Of a DNA stretch of 64,000 nt, positions 40,032 to 51,815 are shown in pieces (the first letter of the stretch is position 1; every line of letters starts with the position of its first letter). The position numbers and the translations under genes were made by a program. Location: the NCBI GenBank assembly GCA_040905025.1, contig JBBDSJ010000126.1, forward strand, positions 5,833 through 69,832, read 5' to 3'. This DNA comes from Gammaproteobacteria bacterium. GTDB lineage: Bacteria; Pseudomonadota; Gammaproteobacteria; Methylohalomonadales; Methylohalomonadaceae. The notes beneath the pieces were generated by a model. It ran no database searches, was not told where the DNA came from, and saw only the letters and a program-made list of their open reading frames with translations.

Positions 40032-41320
40032 TGCGTATCGTGATCCGTGGTGGCCGTGTGATCGATCCGGCAACACAGCTTGATGCCAGCGCCGATGTGT
40101 ATATTGCCGATGGCCGCATTGCCGGCATTGACACCGTCCCCGACTTTACTGCCGACCGCGTCATTGATGCCGGTAACATGCTGGTAATACCGGGGCTGGT
40201 GGATTTGTGTGCGCGCCTGCGTGAACCCGGCCTGGAGCACAAGGCGACCATTGCCAGCGAAACCCGCGCCGCCGCTGCGGCCGGTATTACAACATTATGC
40301 GTACCACCGGACACCGACCCGGTCATTGATACACCGGCCGTGGTCGACATGATTCAGCGCCGCAGCCGCCAGCTCGGGCGCATCAGTGTGAAAATTCTCG
40401 GCGCACTGACCCGCGGTCTTGACGGTAAACGGCTGGCGGAAATGGACGCCCTGAAAAATGCCGGTTGTATCGGTGTCAGTAATGCCCTGCAACCGATGGC
40501 CAACGCACAGGCATTGCGGCGGGCATTTGAATATGCCGTAAGTTGTGGCTTGAAAGTATATCTTTACGCTGAAGACGCGCACCTGCGCGACAGCGGCGTC
40601 GCCAGTGAAGGCGCTGTCAGTACCCGGCTGGGACTGCCCGGCATACCTGAAACCGTAGAAACAGTAGCGCTGGCACAGGCACTATTGCTGGCCGAACAAA
40701 CCGGCGCACATGTGCACTTTTGCCGCCTGAGTTCCGCCCGCGCCGTCGCCATGCTGGCCGATGCCCAGTCACGTGGCCTGGCGGTAACAGCGGACGTCGC
40801 CATTACCCATCTGCATCTGACCGACGCAGCGCTGGCACAGTACGATCCCAATTGTCATCTATTACCGCCATTGCGCAGCGAGGATGATCGACGTGCACTC
40901 TGCCGGGGCGTACAAACCGGTGTCATCAGTGCCATCTGTTCCGATCATCAGCCGCATGACGATGACGCCAAGGCCGGCCCGTTCGTGACAACACAAGCCG
41001 GCGCATCAACACTGGAACACTTGCTGCCGCTGACGCTGCAACTTGTCAGCGAGAATCATCTTGACATGACCACGGCCATCGCCGCGATCACTGCACGTGC
41101 CGCCGAAGTTCTCGGACTCAATGTGGGCAGCCTGCAGACCGGCCGCAGTGCCGATGTCTGTATCGTTGATCCGGCGGCGACATGGGTTGTCAGTGCCGAC
41201 ACGTTGCAAAGTGCCGGCAAGAACACACCGTTTCTTGGCCAGACATTGCAGGGCCGCGTGCAGCAAACACTGCGGCGGGGCCAATTCAGTTTTGATATTA
41301 ACGATTCCAGACTCGCATGA
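40031..41320 (+). CDS. pyrC': dihydroorotase-like protein, probably non-catalytic PyrC'
   Basis: 429 aa amidohydrolase fold. The metal-binding HxH position reads PGLVDLCARLREPG (no His-x-His). Its start overlaps the pyrB stop. Confidence 0.8.
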   Translation: MRIVIRGGRVIDPATQLDASADVYIADGRIAGIDTVPDFTADRVIDAGNMLVIPGLVDLCARLREPGLEHKATIASETRAAAAAGITTLCVPPDTDPVIDTPAVVDMIQRRSRQLGRISVKILGALTRGLDGKRLAEMDALKNAGCIGVSNALQPMANAQALRRAFEYAVSCGLKVYLYAEDAHLRDSGVASEGAVSTRLGLPGIPETVETVALAQALLLAEQTGAHVHFCRLSSARAVAMLADAQSRGLAVTADVAITHLHLTDAALAQYDPNCHLLPPLRSEDDRRALCRGVQTGVISAICSDHQPHDDDAKAGPFVTTQAGASTLEHLLPLTLQLVSENHLDMTTAIAAITARAAEVLGLNVGSLQTGRSADVCIVDPAATWVVSADTLQSAGKNTPFLGQTLQGRVQQTLRRGQFSFDINDSRLA

Positions 41321-42243: not shown

Positions 42244-42969
42244 ATGGAGGCCATGTCGCGCCCGGTCAGTAGCCGCCAGACCGGCGTGCATCCGGAGCTG
42301 ACCCGACTGCTTGCCCGGCGCCGCGCCTGCGCGTATCGCAAACCGATCCATCCGGCCAGTGCCGCCGCATTTGCCAGCGCCGATCAGTTTTACCGTGAAT
42401 GCAAACAACCCGTCGTGCTGGATGCCGGCTGTGGCACCGGCGCAAGCAGTTATTTGCTGGCGGAACAACACCCCGACGCGATCATCATTGCTGTGGACAA
42501 ATCCGCGTATCGCCTGGCCCGGCGGCAGGGCAAACAGCATCAGCGGGTCATGCACGTACGCGCGGACTTGATCGATTTCTGGCGGCTGGCAGCAGCCAGC
42601 GGCTGGAAACTGCAACATCACTATCTGCTCTATCCGAACCCGTGGCCGAAACCGGAACATCTGGCGCGGCGCTGGCATGGCCATCCGGTATTGCCGTGGC
42701 TGCTGGCGCTGGGCGGGACGCTGGAATTGCGCTGCAACTGGCAAGTGTATGCCGAAGAATTTGCGGCGGCGCTGACATTGCTACTGCAGCGGCCAATCAG
42801 CGCTATACGCCTCGACGACCCGGGCGAACCATTGAGCCCGTTTGAGCGCAAATATACCGCCAGCGGCCATATCCTGTACTGCTGTCAGGCACAAATCCGG
42901 ATCGGGGAACGAACCCGGTGGTTACAGGAAACCAACCAGCTGGTTCCTGGCAACCAACCGCAACCATGA
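42244..42969 (+). CDS. TrmB-like SAM-dependent methyltransferase
   Basis: 241 aa. The SAM motif is VLDAGCGTGASS. LYPNPWPKPEHLARRWHGHP resembles the TrmB FPDPWxKxRHxKRR block. Confidence 0.7.
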   Translation: MEAMSRPVSSRQTGVHPELTRLLARRRACAYRKPIHPASAAAFASADQFYRECKQPVVLDAGCGTGASSYLLAEQHPDAIIIAVDKSAYRLARRQGKQHQRVMHVRADLIDFWRLAAASGWKLQHHYLLYPNPWPKPEHLARRWHGHPVLPWLLALGGTLELRCNWQVYAEEFAAALTLLLQRPISAIRLDDPGEPLSPFERKYTASGHILYCCQAQIRIGERTRWLQETNQLVPGNQPQP

Positions 42970-43053
42970 ACCAGGCAGCAACCAGCCCTGACCAAATCCG
43001 AAAATAACATATAAACTATTGTTTTTATGGGGTTCCCAAGATAATCATGAGAT

Positions 43054-43069
43054 TGGCACGGCGAATGCA
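43054..43069 (+). promoter_or_regulatory. sigma-54-type -24/-12 promoter candidate upstream of pqqA-1
   Basis: TGGCACGgcgaATGCA has exact GG-N10-GC spacing and lies about 58 nt before the pqqA ATG. It is conserved in copy 2. Confidence 0.55.
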
Positions 43070-43126
43070 TCATTAACAGCAAGGTGCAACTAAACGCCTG
43101 ACTAATTCAAACACGGAGATACGAAC

Positions 43127-43201
43127 ATGCAATGGTCAACCCCAAGCTACAATGACATCCGCTTTGGTTTCGAAGTGACGATGTACATCAACAACAAGTA
43201 A
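43127..43201 (+). CDS. pqqA: PQQ precursor peptide PqqA (24 aa), copy 1
   Basis: GGAG lies 9 nt upstream. The peptide MQWSTPSYNDIRFGFEVTMYINNK contains the conserved PqqA core FEVTMY (Glu-x3-Tyr). It is below the ORF-track size cutoff. Confidence 0.85.
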   Translation: MQWSTPSYNDIRFGFEVTMYINNK

Positions 43202-43225
43202 TCCAGTAGATTACAGTTGTTAAAC

Positions 43226-43255
43226 AAACCCCGCTCCGGCGGGGTTTTGTTTTTT
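43226..43255 (+). terminator. rho-independent terminator after pqqA-1
   Basis: ccccgc tccg gcgggg stem-loop followed by ttttgtttttt. Confidence 0.8.
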
Positions 43256-43684
43256 GGCTCATTGAAAATCTGTCAATAACTTTGGCTTCTAAACCTGCCT
43301 GTATCAGTAAAACCGATCCCAACTTGTATGGCTAATAACGCTCGCGGGAATGAACGTATACGCGCCAAATTATCGAGTATCAAATCCGTAGCATACGCTT
43401 GAGTTGTCAGTCAGTCACCGCCAGTGCATTCGAGTTTGGAGTAGAATAGTTCGCTGCCCTCTGCTAGGCAAACCTCTGCAGGATATAAAGGCTTCATATC
43501 ATTTATAAACCGCTTCTTGCGAGTCAGTCTGACGGCAATTTTTCACGGTCAGTATCTGCTGTTTATCGTCATCAAGCCCGTTTCAGAAATTGAAAACCGG
43601 AATGCTACTGACCCAATCACTGAATTAATCAGAGACCCCCGAACAGGCATTTAAAAACAGGCTTTTCTGTCATGAAGCACGTGA

Positions 43685-44359
43685 TTAGATCATATTGACA
43701 TTTTTTCGTATAAGGTGAACACATTTGCTGTCGTCTGTCGGATCATACGCGGCCATATAGACATCAATGTCATCTACCTGGTAAATACGTAAATTACTGG
43801 ATGAAAGAAAACCTGCATAGCTAAATAGTACTTTGAAATCAAGATTCCCTTTTTGCAATAGAATATTGATATCGTAGTATTGAAACAGCGCTGCCAATAC
43901 AACAAGAAAACCGAAAGGCAAGAATGTAATATCAAATACCAGTTCCTCAAGCGGGACACCTGTCTGGTTTCCGTACAAGTCCTGGCCTTGAAGTAGAATG
44001 ATGCCAAATATAGATTGCTCGTCGAAATACCATGTGCCGGCAGATATCATAAGCCAGTCATAACCTAGGCCTACGCATAAAAAAAGAAAATATATAAAAA
44101 TCAGAATTGCGTAAATATTGAGTGGCAGCTCGAATTTTTTTTGCAACCAAACCATAAAACCAATAATCCAGATATTGATTACATAAGCAGGCAGCCAAAA
44201 TAATGTATATGTGTATTGCCCGTAATTGATATTGTTTATCTTAGCAATGGCAAAGAGAGAGATTAAATAAACAATACTGAATACCAGTATTATTTTAATG
44301 CTCCTGATATAAAAAGGTGCCCGTACGGACTCAATCTGAGTGTTCTCTTTATTAATCAT
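43685..44359 (-). CDS. hypothetical polytopic membrane protein, very AT-rich
   Basis: 224 aa with about 6 hydrophobic helices. One GVPLEELVF motif is reminiscent of lycopene-cyclase-domain proteins, but only one copy is present. Composition is clearly AT-richer than the surroundings. Confidence 0.5.
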   Translation of the reverse strand: MINKENTQIESVRAPFYIRSIKIILVFSIVYLISLFAIAKINNINYGQYTYTLFWLPAYVINIWIIGFMVWLQKKFELPLNIYAILIFIYFLFLCVGLGYDWLMISAGTWYFDEQSIFGIILLQGQDLYGNQTGVPLEELVFDITFLPFGFLVVLAALFQYYDINILLQKGNLDFKVLFSYAGFLSSSNLRIYQVDDIDVYMAAYDPTDDSKCVHLIRKNVNMI

Positions 44360-44367
44360 GGCAGTCT

Positions 44368-44764
44368 CTAGATTCTAACGAATTCATTAAAAGCTTCGAA
44401 CGGCGTTTGGGCACCCAGCACTTTACATGGTCTACCGCTCAGTAGTCCTGGACCTTGCGGATTTGACACGCACTTACTTCATTAGAATCGGTTCATTTAG
44501 GAAAGTACTGGCGGATCAGGCCATTGGTATTTTCATTGGTACCGCGACCCGGGGACTTTGTGGATGGGCAAAATACACTTGCATTTCCGTCTCCCGGTAA
44601 CTAAGCGATACCTGCTCATCTCTTTACCACGGTCATAGGTCAGCGACAACTTCATTCATCTGTTTTGGCATATACTTGAGCTTGTGGGCAAACGCCTTGT
44701 AAACACTGCTGGCATCGTGGGCCGACAGCGGCACCGTGCGGGTGGTGCGTTCGACCAGGTTCAT
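44368..44764 (-). mobile_element. IS30-family transposase remnant (C-terminal part, frameshifted)
   Basis: Minus-strand frames read LTYDRGKEMS, VYFAHPQSP..., ENTNGLIRQYFPK and LSGRPCKVLGAQTPFEAF. These match the C-terminal DDE region of IS30 transposases. The frame is broken by stops and shifts, and the N-terminal two-thirds are missing. Confidence 0.7.
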
Positions 44765-44935
44765 GCGCTAACAACCTTTTGACATGCAACACGTCTCCTG
44801 AATAATGACAGCATTATTATCGCCGTGTTGCGTTGGGAATTAGATACTGCCCCTCTATGTTACAGACGTTACTGGAAGCGGCTGCAGAATTTATTCAAAC
44901 CTGTTGATATACTAATAAGTGTGCATCTGCTTATT

Positions 44936-45319
44936 CTACTTTACTATTACTACACCGCGCATTCCAGCGTTAGCATGGCCGGGCACAGAACAGATGTACT
45001 CATAGCGACCTGACTGATCAAAGCGCACTTGAGTGGTTGTCTCACTGCCACCCTGAATTGTCTCAGTTTCGATATCCATGTTGGTGAAAGTGATGTTATG
45101 CGCGAGTGCACCATGATTTTTAAGTGTTATAGTCAGTATTTGCCCCGCTTCAATTTCAATCTCAGCCGGCAGAAACGCAAACTCCTCGGCAATAAGTTCT
45201 ATGCTTTTTTCTGACTCGGCATGAGCGGCAACCGAGGTGTGCATGACGGCAGATATGGTCACTATAAACATTGCTATATATCGCTTAATAAATGTACTTT
45301 CGACTAATTTTTCTATCAT
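44936..45319 (-). CDS. type-1 copper cupredoxin (plastocyanin/amicyanin-like), secreted
   Basis: 127 aa with a signal peptide. The copper ligand pattern is ..ALAHN.. and CSVPGHANAGM (His, Cys, His, Met). Confidence 0.8.
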   Translation of the reverse strand: MIEKLVESTFIKRYIAMFIVTISAVMHTSVAAHAESEKSIELIAEEFAFLPAEIEIEAGQILTITLKNHGALAHNITFTNMDIETETIQGGSETTTQVRFDQSGRYEYICSVPGHANAGMRGVVIVK

Positions 45320-45351
45320 GATGATTTACTCCTGTTGAATCAGATGTTTAT

Positions 45352-45378
45352 GGAAGCTCTGATTAAATCAGAGGTTCC
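45352..45378. repeat. minimal copy F of the MITE/REP-like family (ends only)
   Basis: ggaagctctgattaaatcagaggttcc: the two family ends abut and form a 13-bp hairpin with one G-G mismatch. Confidence 0.8.
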
Positions 45379-45405
45379 TTTTATATAAATCAAATTTAAG
45401 AGGCG

Positions 45406-45470
45406 GACAGCCCCCCCCAAGTTGCCGGGGTGAGCAACTGGATGGGAGGGGGGGTAAAGGGGGGCTGTCC
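45406..45470 (+). other. nested-hairpin element, copy 2
   Basis: The outer 12-bp stem is ggacagcccccc / ggggggctgtcc. The inner 6-bp stem agttgc / gcaact closes loop cggggtga. ATGGGAG follows. The layout is the same as 25610-25669. Confidence 0.5.
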
Positions 45471-45485
45471 ATAAAAACCAATCGT

Positions 45486-46463
45486 TCAGAGATCAATCAC
45501 CTCGTCTTGTTCATACATGATGTGAAGAAAAGGCTGCGGCATGCCATTTGGCAGCATGAAAGCGGTTTTTAGGGGTGAAAACACCGGCCCGCGTTCACTG
45601 GCCTTCAAAGGAAGCACGACCAGGTGTGTATGTGTAGCCTGTCCGCGAATATGGCGGCGTTCTGGTGCCAGTGGCAGATCTTTCTGGAAAACCAATTGAT
45701 ACTTACGATCGCGCACGATTTCAGTTGTCATCAAATGCATCATGCGATCTGGCTGTGCTAGTTTGCCATTAATATAGATATCGCCTACGCCCCAGAAAGC
45801 GGCGATGGTCTTAACTTCGGGCATAAGCGGCGAACCAATACCGGTGCTACCGTGATGGATGGAATCGAGCATCACACCGCCTTCTGTGTTGTAACCCGGA
45901 AATGGTGGCTTCATCACCATTTTCAGTATTGCTCGGTACTCATTGCCGCTTGGATCAGTGAAATGCGCCTCCATCGTTGCTTTATCAGGCGTTTCATGAG
46001 GCTTGCCTGGCGGGTTATGCTTGACGACATCGGTGAATGTCGCCTTGAAATGCCCTTGAATAATCTCAGCCTTGTCACTAAAAGGGTTCGGATTATTGAA
46101 CCACAGATCGCCCTTATCATCCGGCATACGTGCCATGGCAGGTACGCCCACGAGAATAGGCAATTCCTCAAGTACGTCAGGCACAGTTGGCGGCATTTTA
46201 CCGGCCGCGACCATTTCCCTGGCTGCTTTTATCTTGGGTTCGGGTAACATCCTGGGGTTTTCAGCCGTGCCAAAAATGGCCGGATCCAGCTTGCGCGGCC
46301 CTGGTAAAACCCAGTAAACAATCTTCCCTGCTTCTTGGCGAACTTCGCGTTTTTGAGCTTGCGATTCCGGCTTGGCGCCCGGCTGGTTTGCGCATCCGGC
46401 CAATAGTAATAAACCGGCTGCACCAAGTAGCACTGAACTAAATTTTGTCTTTACAGTGATCAT
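45486..46463 (-). CDS. hypothetical lipoprotein, no family recognised
   Basis: 325 aa. The lipobox is LLLLAGC. It is His-rich in places (SIHHGSTG, ATHTHLVV) and lies upstream of, and co-directional with, the cupredoxin gene. Confidence 0.7.
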   Translation of the reverse strand: MITVKTKFSSVLLGAAGLLLLAGCANQPGAKPESQAQKREVRQEAGKIVYWVLPGPRKLDPAIFGTAENPRMLPEPKIKAAREMVAAGKMPPTVPDVLEELPILVGVPAMARMPDDKGDLWFNNPNPFSDKAEIIQGHFKATFTDVVKHNPPGKPHETPDKATMEAHFTDPSGNEYRAILKMVMKPPFPGYNTEGGVMLDSIHHGSTGIGSPLMPEVKTIAAFWGVGDIYINGKLAQPDRMMHLMTTEIVRDRKYQLVFQKDLPLAPERRHIRGQATHTHLVVLPLKASERGPVFSPLKTAFMLPNGMPQPFLHIMYEQDEVIDL

Positions 46464-46995
46464 CTTCCTGCCCTCATCAATTTGTGATTACAGTGTTATT
46501 GATGCGGTCGGTGCTCTAATATTACAGAGTGTTGCGAATTGGTCTTATTACAGGAAGGAATCCGGAGCCTGGAAGTTGCTCCTGGCATTAGCTACACCTC
46601 TGAGACAGACTGCTTCAAGCAAGCATCTCTCACGATCAAATGATTGAAGCAGAACAATCGATCCGTCGCAGCCACTTTACGGGCGCGGGTAATAATCCCC
46701 GCATTTATAATGATGCTTTAAAGTACAGCTTACGCAGCTTCACGTGCTTTATGACTGGACGCGATCCCGCCGGAATCTATTTTCACCATGTGAGGGTATA
46801 AATTACGCATACTGCCGTACATCAGGCCCATTAACCGACCTCATTCACCCGGCGTGACACCATCAGAGATCCCGGCAAACCGCATTAGAGAGAGTATTTC
46901 GAATTAATGAGAAAATTCAGTTCCAGTTCCCGGTAAATCTTGTGGATTCTCCACCCATAGTTCGCTATCGGCGGAGAAGTACTGCATTCTCCCGT

Positions 46996-47151
46996 CTCGA
47001 CCCGGGCGAACCGCTGAGCCCGTTTGAGCGAAAATACATCGCCAGCAGCCATATGCTGTCTTGCTGTCTGGCACAGACCCGGGCCGAAGAACGAGCCCAA
47101 TGGTTACAGGAAACCTACCAGTTGGTTTCTGACAACCAACAACAACTATGA
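46996..47151 (+). pseudogene. 3' fragment of a TrmB-like methyltransferase gene (duplicate of 42811-42969)
   Basis: Translates to LDPGEPLSPFERKYIASSHMLSCCLAQTRAEERAQWLQETYQLV. The intact gene's end reads DDPGEPLSPFERKYTASGHILYCCQAQIRIGERTRWLQETNQLV. Nothing homologous lies upstream of 46996. Confidence 0.75.
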
Positions 47152-47238
47152 ACCAGGTGACAAACCAGATCCTTTCAAGTCCGGCAAATACCTTATAAGT
47201 CACTGTGTTTAATTAATATTCTAAAATAATCATGAAAT

Positions 47239-47254
47239 TGGCACGGTGGATGCG
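47239..47254 (+). promoter_or_regulatory. sigma-54-type -24/-12 promoter candidate upstream of pqqA-2
   Basis: TGGCACGgtggATGCG has the same spacing and the same distance to the ATG as copy 1. Confidence 0.55.
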
Positions 47255-47313
47255 TAATTGAAAGCAAAGTGCAAGTCAACACCTGCCAATTTCAACTTAG
47301 AAGAGTTATGAAC

Positions 47314-47388
47314 ATGCAATGGTCAACCCCAAGCTACAATGACAAGCGCTTTGGTTTCGAAGTGACGATGTACATCAACAACAAGTAA
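47314..47388 (+). CDS. pqqA: PQQ precursor peptide PqqA (24 aa), copy 2
   Basis: MQWSTPSYNDKRFGFEVTMYINNK differs from copy 1 only in codon 11 (ATC to AAG). Confidence 0.85.
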   Translation: MQWSTPSYNDKRFGFEVTMYINNK

Positions 47389-47412
47389 TCCAGTAGATTA
47401 CAGTTGTTAAAC

Positions 47413-47441
47413 AAACCCCGCTCCGGCGGGGTTTGTTTTTT
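47413..47441 (+). terminator. rho-independent terminator after pqqA-2
   Basis: ccccgc tccg gcgggg followed by tttgtttttt. Confidence 0.8.
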
Positions 47442-47479
47442 GCGGAGACGGAAAGACCCCTCTTATAGTCAGCATCTGA

Positions 47480-48121
47480 TTATCGTAGCCACGCAGTAAA
47501 CTCCAGACCTGTGCTGATGACCAGCCATATCCCCGCGGCAATCATTACAGCAGCGACAAGTAAATTGACAATTGTTGAGTACCTGCCGCCAGCAATATGC
47601 TTGCCTACATCCGCCGCTATGCAAACATAACCAAGCTTCACCCCGCCGACCGCTACAAGCGCAATCAACATCACCAGACCTGTATCAAAATACGACAGGC
47701 GTTTCAGATCCAGAAACACCGGCAGGAAGCCCAGATAAAAAAGAACCGCCTTTTGATCGGCAAGTGTAATCAACAGCCCCGTCATAAAGCTCGAAAATAG
47801 CGAGCCGGAACCTGCTTTGTTAAATTGTGATGTTTTATTACGAGTACGCCAGAAACCGGTCCCCAACCAGATCAGATAAGCACCGCCGAGCAACTTTGCC
47901 AGAATGAATAGCTCACCCATGACATCAACAAGCAACACCAAACCAAGTATGGCCAGCAATATGAAGATCATATCGCCAGCAACAACGCCGAGGGCAACAA
48001 ACATTCCGTGACTAAACCCGGATATCGCGGCACGTGACGTAACCGCGAACACACTGATGCTGGGCGCTGCCGCAAGTACCGCCATTGCAGCAACCAAGCC
48101 AAGCGCCGAGATGAATGTCAT
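47480..48121 (-). CDS. LysE/RhtB-family amino-acid exporter
   Basis: ATG at 48121 (MTFISALGLVAAMAVLAAAPSISVFAV). It has about 6 TM helices and typical LysE size and N-terminal motif. Confidence 0.8.
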   Translation of the reverse strand: MTFISALGLVAAMAVLAAAPSISVFAVTSRAAISGFSHGMFVALGVVAGDMIFILLAILGLVLLVDVMGELFILAKLLGGAYLIWLGTGFWRTRNKTSQFNKAGSGSLFSSFMTGLLITLADQKAVLFYLGFLPVFLDLKRLSYFDTGLVMLIALVAVGGVKLGYVCIAADVGKHIAGGRYSTIVNLLVAAVMIAAGIWLVISTGLEFTAWLR

Positions 48122-48244
48122 ATCTTGTTCAGGTGGCAATGGATTGATTGAATCCATCGTACAACAATATCAGCCAGGTATTACAGCCTGTAAAAAATCA
48201 CATCATGGTAATGCCCCTGCAGCGCAGGGGCTCCAGAGACAGAC

Positions 48245-50314
48245 CTAGAAATTGTAACGTGCGCTCAGGCCAGCATAGGCATTAAGTTCTGGTCCGGGCT
48301 CAAAAAACCTCTGGAAGTTATCATTAATCCGAATATTTGAGAAATACTGCTTGTCAAAAACATTATTTATGCCAACAAACGGGGAAATTTCAACGTTGCC
48401 AATATTCTTGGTATAGCCGAAGCGAATATTGGAAACACCATAGCCGGCCACTTCCACCGCATTGGCGTTCTCAGCAAACAGACTGCCGACCAGCAACGTA
48501 TCCCAGACACCATAAAAGCCGGACGGGTGGTTATAGGCCACTTCGAAGAAGCCGAAGTGTTCCGGGATACCAGGCAGATTATTACCATTAAAATTTAGTT
48601 GATTATTATTGATAATCGGCTGGAAGCTCTTGTACTCAAAATCCGAGTAGGTATATGAAAACGAGGTAGTCAGGCCCGGCAACGGATTGGCACTCAACGC
48701 CAATTCAAAACCCTTGCGCTCGGTTTCACCGGCAGTAATAAAGAAATTCTGATCAATGTCCTGCGGTACCAGTTCATTTTCACCGTCAATCATGAATATC
48801 GCGGCGTCATAACTCAGTGCCCACCATTGTGGCACCACGCCCTTCACACCGATCTCGTAGTTAGTCGCCGTCAATGCGTCCAGATTCTGATTGAAGCCGC
48901 CGACACCGGCCGGATTGCCAAACTCGGTGGTGGATGGTGTTTCGAATGAAGTCGACACGTTGCCGTACAGATTCACTTCCTGAATCGGCGAATACAACAA
49001 ACCGACCATCGGACTCACCTCGTCAAATTTAACTGTGCCCGACTGGTTGCCATCAGCAAAGAATTTATCTGTGACATCAAACTCGACCTCGTCATAACGT
49101 ATACCGGTAGTCAATGTCAGCTTGTCAGTGACAAAAAATTCGTTCTGGGCAAAAAATCCCAGGCTGGAAACATTTTCGTTCTGGTTCAACGAAAGTGGTC
49201 CCTGTCGTCCACCGGCAAAATTGATAAAGTTTTGCCTATCGTCATCCTGATTTTCTATATCAAAACCGACCGTAAGTCGGTTACGATCACCGTTATAAGT
49301 GTACTGACCGCCACCACCGACAAAGAAACGCTGGAACGCCACCTGACCACGCGGAATGTTGAGAAAACCGCCTATGCCAATCGGCAGCTTGTTTTCAAAA
49401 TCACGCCAGACATAGTAATTGCGCAGGCGTATTTCATGCCTGTCACTGAATTCCTTGCGATAGACAAATCCGATTTGTTGCTGCGTTATGCTTTCACCGG
49501 CATCAAACAGCAAAGCGTTCGGTGCTGCCTGGCGCCGATCCTGCTGTACCTGTGCCAGTGTCAAACCACCCGGGTCCTGTGCCAGCGGTGAATCCAGGAT
49601 ATTAACAATGGTGGTCAGGTCCGAGGTAGCATCAATGTCATAACGAAACTTGACGTTGGCCAGGACGCTTTCGGTCTGACTGTTGCCACGATAACCATCA
49701 ATTTCATAGCGGCCAATATTGACGAGATAATTCAGCTTGTCTTTCTGGCCGCCGGCTTTCAGGTTGTATTTCTGAAAGTCATATGAACCGTAGCTGTAAC
49801 GGCCCTCGACGAAAGGCTCTTCCGGACCTTCTTCGGTAACAATATTGATTACACCACCGGATGCAGTGCCATACAGCGATGAGGCCGGACCGCGGATAAC
49901 CTCAATCCTTTCCGCCGATGCCAAATCAATCGCATCAATGCCGCCCTGACCATCGGGCAATGTTTGTGGAATGCCATCGGCAATGATCTTGATACCACGA
50001 ATGCCGAAGTCGGACCGCGCACCAAATCCGCGAATCGCTACCCGCAAGTCCTGACTGAAATTATAACGGTTCAGCATGAATACACCGGGAATGCGATTCA
50101 GCGACTCATCCAGTCCGAGTTGCTGTCGGCCCAGTTGAATATCATCCTTGTCGACAACACTGATGGCCGTTGGCACCTTGGTGGTAACGGTATCGACGCG
50201 CGGCGAAGTTACTGTTATCTCACCGAGATCTTCGGCTTTTGATTGCGCAGCGGTGTGGCCGGCAACGCTACCGAGCGTCACGCCGGCAAGCAACGCAAGC
50301 AGATGTTTGTTCAT
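48245..50314 (-). CDS. TonB-dependent outer-membrane receptor
   Basis: ATG at 50314 gives a signal peptide (MNKHLLALLAGVTLGSVAGHTAAQS). The TonB box is like ITVTS. The plug domain has NRIPGVF, IRGFG and EVIRGPASSLYG. The C-terminus is YNF. Confidence 0.9.
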   Translation of the reverse strand: MNKHLLALLAGVTLGSVAGHTAAQSKAEDLGEITVTSPRVDTVTTKVPTAISVVDKDDIQLGRQQLGLDESLNRIPGVFMLNRYNFSQDLRVAIRGFGARSDFGIRGIKIIADGIPQTLPDGQGGIDAIDLASAERIEVIRGPASSLYGTASGGVINIVTEEGPEEPFVEGRYSYGSYDFQKYNLKAGGQKDKLNYLVNIGRYEIDGYRGNSQTESVLANVKFRYDIDATSDLTTIVNILDSPLAQDPGGLTLAQVQQDRRQAAPNALLFDAGESITQQQIGFVYRKEFSDRHEIRLRNYYVWRDFENKLPIGIGGFLNIPRGQVAFQRFFVGGGGQYTYNGDRNRLTVGFDIENQDDDRQNFINFAGGRQGPLSLNQNENVSSLGFFAQNEFFVTDKLTLTTGIRYDEVEFDVTDKFFADGNQSGTVKFDEVSPMVGLLYSPIQEVNLYGNVSTSFETPSTTEFGNPAGVGGFNQNLDALTATNYEIGVKGVVPQWWALSYDAAIFMIDGENELVPQDIDQNFFITAGETERKGFELALSANPLPGLTTSFSYTYSDFEYKSFQPIINNNQLNFNGNNLPGIPEHFGFFEVAYNHPSGFYGVWDTLLVGSLFAENANAVEVAGYGVSNIRFGYTKNIGNVEISPFVGINNVFDKQYFSNIRINDNFQRFFEPGPELNAYAGLSARYNF

Positions 50315-50647
50315 GGGCAGCCCCTTCTCCACTGATTAATATAGTTATAAAAGCGCGGGTGTTGGCACAACCTGCTGGTTACCGCGAGCATCCGATCCCG
50401 GCAAGCCGTCATGCTAAACTAATAATATCTGCAAGCAAAATCTATGCCGCTAAATGCTTTAAATGATCGTGAGTTTTTTCTACGCTGAATCAAGAACGCC
50501 AAACCAGATGTTTTATGCTTTTTACGCTAAAGCGCGCGTACTTCGAACCGAACCCGGCAACAAAATCGCTACGCAGGCTTTGCTGGTCGTGGCTTATATC
50601 GCACAAACTTTCAACCACGCTGGCTGATATGGAACATATCCTGGCTG

Positions 50648-51403
50648 CTAGAATCGGTACCGCGCGGTGCGCCTGGCCGGCTGCGATAGATGCCGGGCGA
50701 GATAGTCTTTGCGATGCATCGGCAAAATCAGCAACAATCCAGCCATAAAACCGCCAATATGCGCCCAGAATGCGACTCCGCCCTCGCTGCCACCAAGCGT
50801 TGGCAAGCCGCCCAGCAATTGCAACATAAACCAGTAACCCAGCATCACCCAGGCCGGCACGGCGATGGTCGTCATATAAAAACCCAGAAAAATAAACGTC
50901 GTGATGTGAGTACGTGGATACAGCAATGCATATGCGCCCATGACACCACCGATAGCGCCGGACGCACCCACCATCGGAATGGCGTTGGCCGGATCAGTTA
51001 TGGTTTGAGCAGCGGCAGCGGCAAGGCCGCATAGCATATAAAACAGCAGGAACCGCCATGGCCCCATGGCATCTTCGACGTTGTCACCGAATACCCATAA
51101 AAACCACATATTGCCGATAATATGCAACCAGCCACCATGCATGAACATTGACGCAAACAGTGAGGATACGCCTGAATCATTGATCCGGCAGCCTGCATCC
51201 GGACCCAGCGGCACAATGGTACCCACGGGCAGATGACCCAGTAACTCGGCCGGGATCAGGCCATAACTGCAGATCGAGCGTAACAGGAATTCAGGATGAC
51301 CCCAGCCCTGGATAAAAATCCACGCCAGAATGTTGAGGGTGATAATCGTGACGGTCGCGACTGGCGGCCGGACGACGGGACTCTCGTCGCGGAGCGGAAA
51401 CAT
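50648..51403 (-). CDS. rhomboid-family intramembrane serine protease
   Basis: 251 aa. HGGWLHIIGNMWFLWVFG and the catalytic GASGAIGGVMGAY segment are present. Confidence 0.9.
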   Translation of the reverse strand: MFPLRDESPVVRPPVATVTIITLNILAWIFIQGWGHPEFLLRSICSYGLIPAELLGHLPVGTIVPLGPDAGCRINDSGVSSLFASMFMHGGWLHIIGNMWFLWVFGDNVEDAMGPWRFLLFYMLCGLAAAAAQTITDPANAIPMVGASGAIGGVMGAYALLYPRTHITTFIFLGFYMTTIAVPAWVMLGYWFMLQLLGGLPTLGGSEGGVAFWAHIGGFMAGLLLILPMHRKDYLARHLSQPARRTARYRF

Positions 51404-51467
51404 GCCGGCTTTTTATTATTTATGCTGTCTGCTGACAACCACCGAATGATACGTTTTTCAGACCGGA

Positions 51468-51815
51468 TCAGATCGGCCGTTGCCGTTCACGGATCGCGAC
51501 ATCAACCTGATCGACTTCCTGATACCGGGATTCCGGAATGCTGATGCTGCGTTTCGCCTGTTCCGTACCCTCACTCTGGATGACAATAACTTCCAGTGTC
51601 TCGTGTACGACCTCACCGGCCTTGTTCTTGAATTTCACCGTCAGTGTACCGTCGTAGGCATTATCGCAGTCATTTTCAATGGTGGCAGTCCATTCCACCG
51701 TGGTAATACCGAATTCGGTCTCTACTTCTTTCAATTCGTGTTCATCGACGCGCAGGCAATCAGCAAAAGCTGCGGTAGAAAACAAAAATATGTTGATAAA
51801 CAAAAATATGCGCAT
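51468..51815 (-). CDS. hypothetical secreted protein
   Basis: 115 aa with a clear signal peptide (MRIFLFINIFLFSTAAFA). No family recognised. Confidence 0.55.
   Translation of the reverse strand: MRIFLFINIFLFSTAAFADCLRVDEHELKEVETEFGITTVEWTATIENDCDNAYDGTLTVKFKNKAGEVVHETLEVIVIQSEGTEQAKRSISIPESRYQEVDQVDVAIRERQRPI

Follow-up and report, generated by a model that had tools for sequence, protein, structure and literature searches.

A diverged gene-end repeat around a low-GC islet beside pqqA: a possible scar of integrase-free recombination

Organization of the locus

We analysed a 64,000-nucleotide stretch (the window), part of contig C126 of a gammaproteobacterial metagenome-assembled genome (MAG; GCA_040905025.1, hereafter W; 2.5 Mb, 53% GC, 151 contigs). 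It holds an islet, X (43256-46995), that is bracketed by a direct repeat: copy 1, on the left, comprises the 3' end of a TrmB-like methyltransferase gene (mt) and a downstream pqqA, the gene for the pyrroloquinoline quinone (PQQ) precursor, and copy 2, on the right, is a truncated version of the same segment. An earlier note, made from the letters of this DNA alone, had read the arrangement as a decayed integrative islet with the mt-pqqA junction as its attachment region. The features that frame X are the following.

42244-42969, plus strand: mt, complete TrmB-like S-adenosylmethionine methyltransferase (Pfam PF02390 Methyltransf_4, E 7.9e-11)
42816-43254, plus strand: repeat copy 1 (mt 3' end, spacer with sigma-54-type box, pqqA1, terminator)
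43127-43201, plus strand: pqqA1, Ile11 (TIGR02107 PqqA, 45.6 bits)
46991-47441, plus strand: repeat copy 2 (orphan mt 3' end, spacer with sigma-54-type box, pqqA2, terminator)
47314-47388, plus strand: pqqA2, Lys11 (TIGR02107 PqqA, 39.2 bits)
47480-48157, minus strand: lysE, LysE-family exporter (Pfam LysE, E 4e-29)
48245-50332, minus strand: TonB-dependent receptor, conserved to the right of pqqA in relatives

A repeat finder and MAFFT resolved two collinear copies at 42816-43254 and 46998-47441, offset by ~4185 bp, and the left edge of copy 2 shifted to 46991 once it was aligned with L084, an allele of the sister lineage. This precise alignment (42816-43254 against 46991-47441) bears out the diverged direct repeat described in the earlier note. 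Overall, the 445-bp repeat is 82% identical and its copies lie 3.7 kb apart. Divergence is unevenly spread: the mt 3' end (~153 nt, 42817-42969 in copy 1) is 84% identical with no indels and a common TGA stop, the spacer has ~79% identity and 4-5 indels, and the segment holding pqqA, its 3' untranslated region (UTR) and the terminator (43116-43254 against 47303-47441) differs only in codon 11 and in one T of the terminator run. This block measures 139 bp, and near-identity holds from 8 nt before the pqqA ATG through the end of the terminator, which in copy 1 consists of a stem at 43226-43247 and a T run. A recent tandem duplication was ruled out, the copies being 3.7 kb apart and 82% identical rather than adjacent and near-identical.

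As the earlier note had stated, only copy 1 is attached to a complete Methyltransf_4 gene. The orphan mt 3' end in copy 2 (46991-47151) has an open but decayed frame. To the left of its border we found zero residual homology to mt, so the abrupt start that the note had reported stands, with its edge refined to 46991. X begins exactly where copy 1 stops and ends exactly where copy 2 starts.

Empty sites in relatives

Relatives were found through protein searches with mt, followed by inspection of the encoding contigs; the syntenic ones encode proteins with 54-58% amino acid identity. In L074, L075, L076, L077 and L080, as in W, mt closes a conserved pyrR-pyrB-pyrC'-pyrK-like block. L075 and L080 continue from mt with a sigma-54 box, pqqA, a terminator, a TonB receptor and a rhomboid gene, and L076 has the same order with two tandem pqqA genes. 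Both the islet and lysE are absent from these three family-level relatives. Because of the three empty sites, the mt-pqqA junction is taken as ancestral, with ~5 kb (X, copy 2 and lysE) added in the W lineage. The earlier note had held that one arrangement in all relatives, equally diverged and with no empty site, would indicate an ancient duplication: L074, a conspecific MAG (GCA_040880265.1) and the only close relative available, is occupied and shows the same divergence between the copies, whereas L075, L076 and L080 are empty and lack lysE.

In L076, the tandem pqqA pair (L076:6250-6540) is ~85 bp apart, with one sigma-54 box before it and one terminator after it. It represents an independent duplication at the same locus, so pqqA duplication recurs here.

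Further searches widened the sample little. The genus contains only W in GTDB, and the sister genus lacks both an mt ortholog and the lipoprotein encoded in X. A scan of genome contigs with mt gave no match above 52% identity, a back-translated PqqA pattern had no match among JGI metagenome contigs, and an Rfam scan returned only chance matches below threshold.

Contents and predicted source of the islet

X has a GC content of 45.5%, in the 1st percentile of same-length windows of the genome (mean 53.0%, s.d. 2.8), in line with the AT-richness noted earlier, and every element that the note had listed (an IS30 remnant, a membrane protein, a cupredoxin, a lipoprotein and two repeat elements) is present.

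43256-43684, no strand: non-coding left end of X (no homology by tblastx or blastn among the sequences compared)
43685-44359, minus strand: 224-aa multi-pass membrane protein, no family match, 35.9% GC
44445-44758, minus strand: IS30-family transposase remnant, C-terminal ~100 codons with frameshifts and a stop (tblastn and tblastx against the genome's own IS30)
44747-44847, no strand: 100-bp element, one other copy in the genome (C132:13334-13434, 87% identical)
44936-45319, minus strand: type-1 cupredoxin with signal peptide (Pfam Cupredoxin_1, E 2e-16; Copper-bind, E 6e-13)
45352-45380, no strand: palindromic element resembling repetitive extragenic palindromes, of a genome-specific family with ~22 copies across the genome
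45402-45472, no strand: G/C-run palindrome following that element
45486-46463, minus strand: 325-aa lipoprotein, no family match, from an uncharacterised, widespread family (205 homologs)
46464-46990, no strand: non-coding right end of X, including the lipoprotein promoter region and ending at the illegitimate joint with copy 2

The membrane protein belongs to a rare family, with only 6 homologs among 5.8 billion proteins. The cupredoxin is the second gene of a lipoprotein-cupredoxin operon; this order recurs in all three contexts examined, and one homolog, P0081, is a fusion of the two proteins. Among 34 homologs of the lipoprotein, many His and Met residues are invariant (HHG..G.GSPLMP, HLMTTE, Q.HHTHL and HIMFEQDE). 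Its AlphaFold (AF2) model was well scored (predicted local distance difference test 90.7, predicted template modelling score 0.86) and had no fold match in the PDB (best E 0.2, template modelling score <0.22). We regard the lipoprotein as a candidate new copper or redox protein family.

The flanks of the cargo orthologs in three relatives (L071, L072 and L082) match W's own contig C22, a different part of the genome. There, the TauE-hydrolase-[membrane protein] order seen in L082 corresponds to C22:16071-18281, and the SDR (short-chain dehydrogenase/reductase; or EamA)-[lipoprotein-cupredoxin]-SpoIIE order of relatives corresponds to C22:22105-24441. In relatives the two gene sets lie ~7 kb apart in an AT-rich region beside tRNA-Pro. 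In W, both sets are single-copy and absent from C22. The IS30 remnant sits exactly at the seam of the two sets in X; the genome's own IS30 copies that it matches lie on C141, C68 and C25, and plasmid sequences that match the remnant carry the annotation IS30 family transposase. The cargo proteins share 70-78% identity with their orthologs in relatives, and the former neighbours are 63-83% identical at the amino acid level. By these correspondences the cargo is lineage-native and relocated, not demonstrably foreign, and the C22 region is its ancestral home. The low GC of X was inherited from the old neighbourhood and is no alien mark, because the C22 region (44.8%) and X (45.5%) are alike. The foreign origin proposed in the earlier note is thus not upheld: the orthologs lie in a C22-like region, with the divergence and GC of the former neighbours.

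The C22 region itself (C22:15813-29000) is a 13-kb low-GC stretch directly after tRNA-Pro(CGG) and ispB. A YHS-domain gene (C22:23014-23529) occupies the slot of the relatives' lipoprotein-cupredoxin pair.

Searches of X with Pfam, NCBIfam and tblastx in six frames, covering its non-coding parts and its open reading frames of at least 40 codons, revealed only the IS30 fragment and no integrase, excisionase or other recombinase, nor a remnant of one, as the earlier note had said of integrases. The small reading frames of X held no other Pfam domains, and its non-coding ends held no remnants of neighbouring genes. When plasmids were searched, as the note had proposed for the islet genes, only the IS30 piece matched at the DNA level, and the lipoprotein had 44-48% matches on haloarchaeal megaplasmids.

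These results bear on the note's own model, a classical integrase islet that entered at the mt/pqqA 3' end, brought along a copy of that end and had its integrase deleted or worn away afterwards. Like integrase islands in the 3' ends of tRNA, tmRNA or protein genes, the locus has a gene-end direct repeat, low-GC cargo and empty sites in relatives, and the IS30 scar makes decay visible. In contrast to such islands, it has neither an integrase nor a short exact core, the repeat being 445 bp long and diverged, and no short identical attachment (att) core was found at the borders, where copy 2 starts on the left at an ordinary illegitimate joint. Moreover, the copy linked to X and conserved between strains is the far, truncated one; it leaves the target gene unrebuilt, and the native end remains on mt. 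The cargo, furthermore, is lineage-native with the composition of its old neighbourhood, and no relative of the islet was found on plasmids. We therefore consider this model very unlikely. What survives of it is the insertion at the junction, supported by the three empty sites, and the role of mt-pqqA as a recombination substrate; the attachment site and the integrase do not.

Divergence and age of copy 2

A codon-position comparison of copy 1 and copy 2 alone was uninformative, and we added the sister lineage, T (contigs L084 and L085; L087 is also from T), and two further alleles. T is 92% identical to W over pyrC'-pyrK-mt, with 17% divergence at 4-fold sites. The T contigs read from the left end inside pqqA, and those approached from the other side end inside the TonB receptor. 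In the mt tail and spacer, the three sequences stand equally far from one another: private changes number 28 in copy 1 of W, 23 in T and 29 in copy 2. The functional T gene and copy 2 share a single-GAC codon state and the string CCCGTCTCGAC; the single-GAC state of copy 2 matches T, not the W, L74 or P0265 alleles, and the proximal spacer of T also resembles copy 2.

In its mt tail, copy 2 carries 8 private amino acid replacements at positions where all four functional alleles (W, L74, P0265 and T) agree, compared with 3 in T and 1 in W. On its branch, which has roughly double the length of the others, 3 codon changes are synonymous and 7 non-synonymous. Because of these private replacements, the 3:7 codon changes and the long branch, the orphan mt end is taken to have been dead for long, roughly since the split of W and T. 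The note's estimate that the copies differ at about one position in five does speak against a recent tandem duplication. As a sign of foreignness it fails, since it equals the orthologous divergence of the sister lineage plus neutral decay; it reflects age and decay and cannot by itself show a foreign source.

The pqqA block behaves differently. Apart from codon 11 of copy 2, pqqA is identical in W, T and copy 2, and the 3' UTR and terminator match between the copies (one T aside) yet differ in L075. Gene conversion or repeated crossovers would therefore be needed to account for the uniformity of this block.

Farther right, the TonB receptor of T (L087:5784-7688) shows 66% nucleotide identity to window positions 48889-50253, with rhomboid and two-component flanks at 84-89%. 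Around the receptor, neighbouring genes are 84-93% identical between T and W. This contrast indicates replacement or strong diversifying selection of the T receptor and, because the receptor stands at 66% against 84-93% for its neighbours, we treat the whole interval from mt to rhomboid as a variable locus.

Equidistance of the three sequences is also what an ancient tandem duplication in place would produce, which is the main competing explanation and in our estimate a rather unlikely one. On that account, a 445-bp mt-end/pqqA segment was duplicated, multiplying pqqA; IS30-mediated insertions then brought the cargo between the copies, the second mt end decayed neutrally and gene conversion preserved the uniformity of the pqqA core. 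A duplication near the time when W and T split would agree with the star-like distances, copy 2 resembles a long-dead fragment, an IS30 remnant lies within X, and pqqA multiplication has precedents both in the L076 tandem pair and in methylotrophs, which commonly have 3-12 copies (PMC4109929). However, the L076 pair lacks an mt fragment, and the in-frame codon state of copy 2 matches the functional T allele instead of those of W, L74 and P0265. Every insertion would also have to strike the single bond between the copies, and no duplicated sequence lies beside X beyond the repeat.

Promoters and the three pqqA genes

Both pqqA1 and pqqA2 encode 24-aa peptides with the EVTMY sequence (a Glu-x3-Tyr motif) and score above the TIGR02107 cut-off of 20 bits. 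Codon 11 reads ATC (Ile, 43157-43159) in pqqA1 and AAG (Lys, 47344-47346) in pqqA2, two adjacent substitutions within the otherwise identical 139-bp block. Residue 11 is Ile in pqqA1, pqqA3 and all relatives; Lys occurs in PqqA2 alone and lowers the score from 45.6 to 39.2 bits.

A TGGCAC-N5-nTGC box of the GG-N10-GC type lies at 43054-43069 (TGGCAC 43054-43059, GC 43067-43068) in copy 1 and at 47239-47254 (TGGCAC 47239-47244, GC 47252-47253) in copy 2. This predicted sigma-54 box precedes all three pqqA genes of W and also the pqqA of L075, L076, L077 and L080. Both rpoN, on contig C70, and a neighbouring NtrC-type activator system are present. The third gene, pqqA3, belongs to a stretch at C121:77480-79894 and encodes MKWETPAYSDIRFGFEVTMYINNK, the peptide type of the relatives. 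Immediately after it come pqqC, pqqD and pqqE, and pqqB does not intervene. A TGGCAC-N5-TGGCT sigma-54-like box precedes pqqA3, and genes of the tetrahydromethanopterin pathway lie upstream.

The repeat would thus supply a second promoter-equipped pqqA, the Lys11 variant, predicted to be sigma-54-driven, beside pqqA1 and pqqA3. Methylotrophs commonly carry pqqA in 3-12 copies (Methylophilaceae; PMC4109929), and the locus resembles these in having extra stand-alone pqqA genes apart from pqqBCDE, here three in total with one before pqqCDE. It differs in that the history of one extra copy is readable, and in that the end of a neighbouring gene and a sigma-54 promoter were copied along with it.

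Strain mosaicism at the pqqA blocks

L074 is 98.3% identical to W over 19.4 kb and has the same arrangement and the same divergence between copy 1 and copy 2. Along this alignment, divergence from W is distributed as follows.

Upstream genes: 2.4%
mt: 5.1%
Left part of copy 1: 3.4%, similar to the host gene
43123-47441: 2 differences in 4.3 kb
47442-47646 (205 bp): 15.6%
47647-51667: 0.3%

Copy 2 is 99.8% identical between the two strains. The breakpoints lie at the start of pqqA1 and at the exact end of the pqqA2 terminator, which fits crossovers concentrating in the most conserved stretch. The 205-bp patch covers intergenic sequence and the last ~55 lysE codons, and 18 of those ~55 LysE residues differ between W and L074; it is a recombination tract, a micro-import of congener-level divergence that begins exactly where the pqqA2 terminator ends. 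Two further patches (41000-41100 and 42600-42700) are 10-11% diverged inside genes that otherwise differ by 2-4%. In these patches L074 departs from W and T alike, a sign of additional small imports into L074.

Logan contigs of three related lineages (L077, L078, L079, L084 and L085) all end inside pqqA, and L077, L078 and L079 end at one identical position, 178 bp past mt. These contig ends suggest that pqqA is repeated in those genomes as well.

Such a low-diversity block could be taken for a still-mobile 4.19-kb cassette, consisting of X and copy 2 between pqqA-terminator repeats, that excises and re-integrates through RecA and has recently spread among strains. The near-exact 139-bp flanking repeat, the 2 differences across 43123-47441 against 2-5% on the left and 15.6% in 205 bp on the right, and the coincidence of both block edges with pqqA blocks would all agree with this. 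Against it, 47647-51667 also differs by only 0.3%, so that the low-diversity block exceeds the cassette, and the 205-bp patch could have been imported separately; mosaic divergence is general along the 19-kb alignment, and neither an empty-site allele nor a circle junction was seen in the two strains available. We judge a mobile cassette improbable. A separate 4.19-kb plasmid was rejected because it would have no replication gene.

The exact repeat also raises the question of whether the assembly followed a wrong or strain-chimeric path through the pqqA-terminator block. The data are from MAGs, the repeat is exact over 88-139 bp, and related Logan contigs break inside pqqA. Two independent assemblies, however, give the same order, the joint between X and copy 2 lies in unique sequence, and in W both the ATC/AAG difference and the T-run indel identify each copy near its unique flank. 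Taken together, an artefact is hardly to be expected.

Discussion

Our preferred interpretation, to which we give about an even chance, is that the locus is an old integrase-free recombination scar in the variable locus downstream of the pyr-mt-pqqA block, formed in one event with one homologous and one illegitimate joint. A single event appears most economical because X is bracketed exactly, there is one abrupt joint and no recombinase is present.

The following sequence of steps would account for the arrangement. IS30 may have been involved in assembling or relocating the cargo downstream of a pqqA terminator. A single recombination between two alleles of the locus could then have produced the order of full copy, X and truncated copy, with the homologous joint in the ultra-conserved pqqA-terminator block or in adjacent conserved genes and the illegitimate joint inside mt, at 46991. 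The route might have been homology-facilitated illegitimate recombination (HFIR) acting on linear DNA, or else a circle that integrated by one Campbell-type crossover. The orphan mt end would subsequently have decayed neutrally, while the sigma-54-pqqA-terminator unit stayed intact and would add a second expressed gene for the precursor. The identity of pqqA and the terminator would have been upheld by gene conversion or repeated crossovers, and later exchanges between strains would have broken again at the edges of the pqqA blocks.

HFIR-type logic has been proposed for orphan 3' ends in arrays of Rhs and type VI secretion system (T6SS) genes (PMC5361080). The locus has the hallmark of such orphan ends: a truncated mt end with a downstream pqqA lies apart from the intact copy, at an abrupt non-homologous joint. 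As in Rhs, contact-dependent inhibition and T6SS arrays (PMC5361080; cited work on Acinetobacter, Streptococcus and Pseudomonas stutzeri), an intact gene with its small gene is followed by new DNA and then by a truncated 3' end with its own small gene; there is no dedicated recombinase, a homologous anchor and an illegitimate joint are inferred, and the copies differ by as much as alleles or species do. In contrast to those arrays, the locus is metabolic (a methyltransferase and a PQQ precursor) and not toxin-immunity, it holds a single orphan unit, the intervening DNA consists of relocated lineage-native genes and an IS30 scar, and the small gene is kept identical between the copies.

The proposed part of IS30 recalls relocation by IS30- or IS26-type elements, in that the remnant lies exactly between gene sets that do not adjoin each other in relatives, and their former site no longer holds these genes. 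Unlike composite transposons and translocatable units, the locus has no flanking insertion sequence copies, inverted repeats or target duplications. An IS30 composite transposon was ruled out, as there is a single internal remnant of ~315 bp with no inverted repeats and no second copy.

Several points weigh against the recombination scar. No junction microhomology or donor allele was identified, and either copy 1 or copy 2 could have arrived with X. An ancient duplication in place would yield the same star-like distances, and the excess length of the copy 2 branch is only a trend in a 50-codon tail (binomial p = 0.08). The role of IS30 is inferred from the position of its remnant. Every sequence compared comes from a MAG or a Logan contig. 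Support for the link between pqqA1 and X comes from two agreeing independent assemblies, and the strain mosaics could in part have arisen where the assembler changed paths within the exact repeat of 88-139 bp.

A bolder extension, which we offer as speculation and think unlikely, is that the pqqA-terminator block serves as a recombinase-free, homology-based attachment site, at which cassettes ending in pqqA are inserted, swapped and spread among strains and sister species by RecA alone. If so, RecA-driven cassette exchange would also drive the multiplication of stand-alone pqqA genes in methylotrophs.

The locus illustrates that low GC and a bracketing gene-end repeat do not necessarily make an islet an integrase island or alien DNA. 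It may also mark the pqqA-terminator block as a recurrent crossover point in a variable locus. Although it represents no new kind of system, it is useful when MAGs are annotated and when gene gain without mobile-element enzymes is modelled. For the methylotrophs, it would offer a readable origin for one of their typical extra pqqA genes, in which the gene was duplicated together with its promoter and terminator and this unit was then held uniform.

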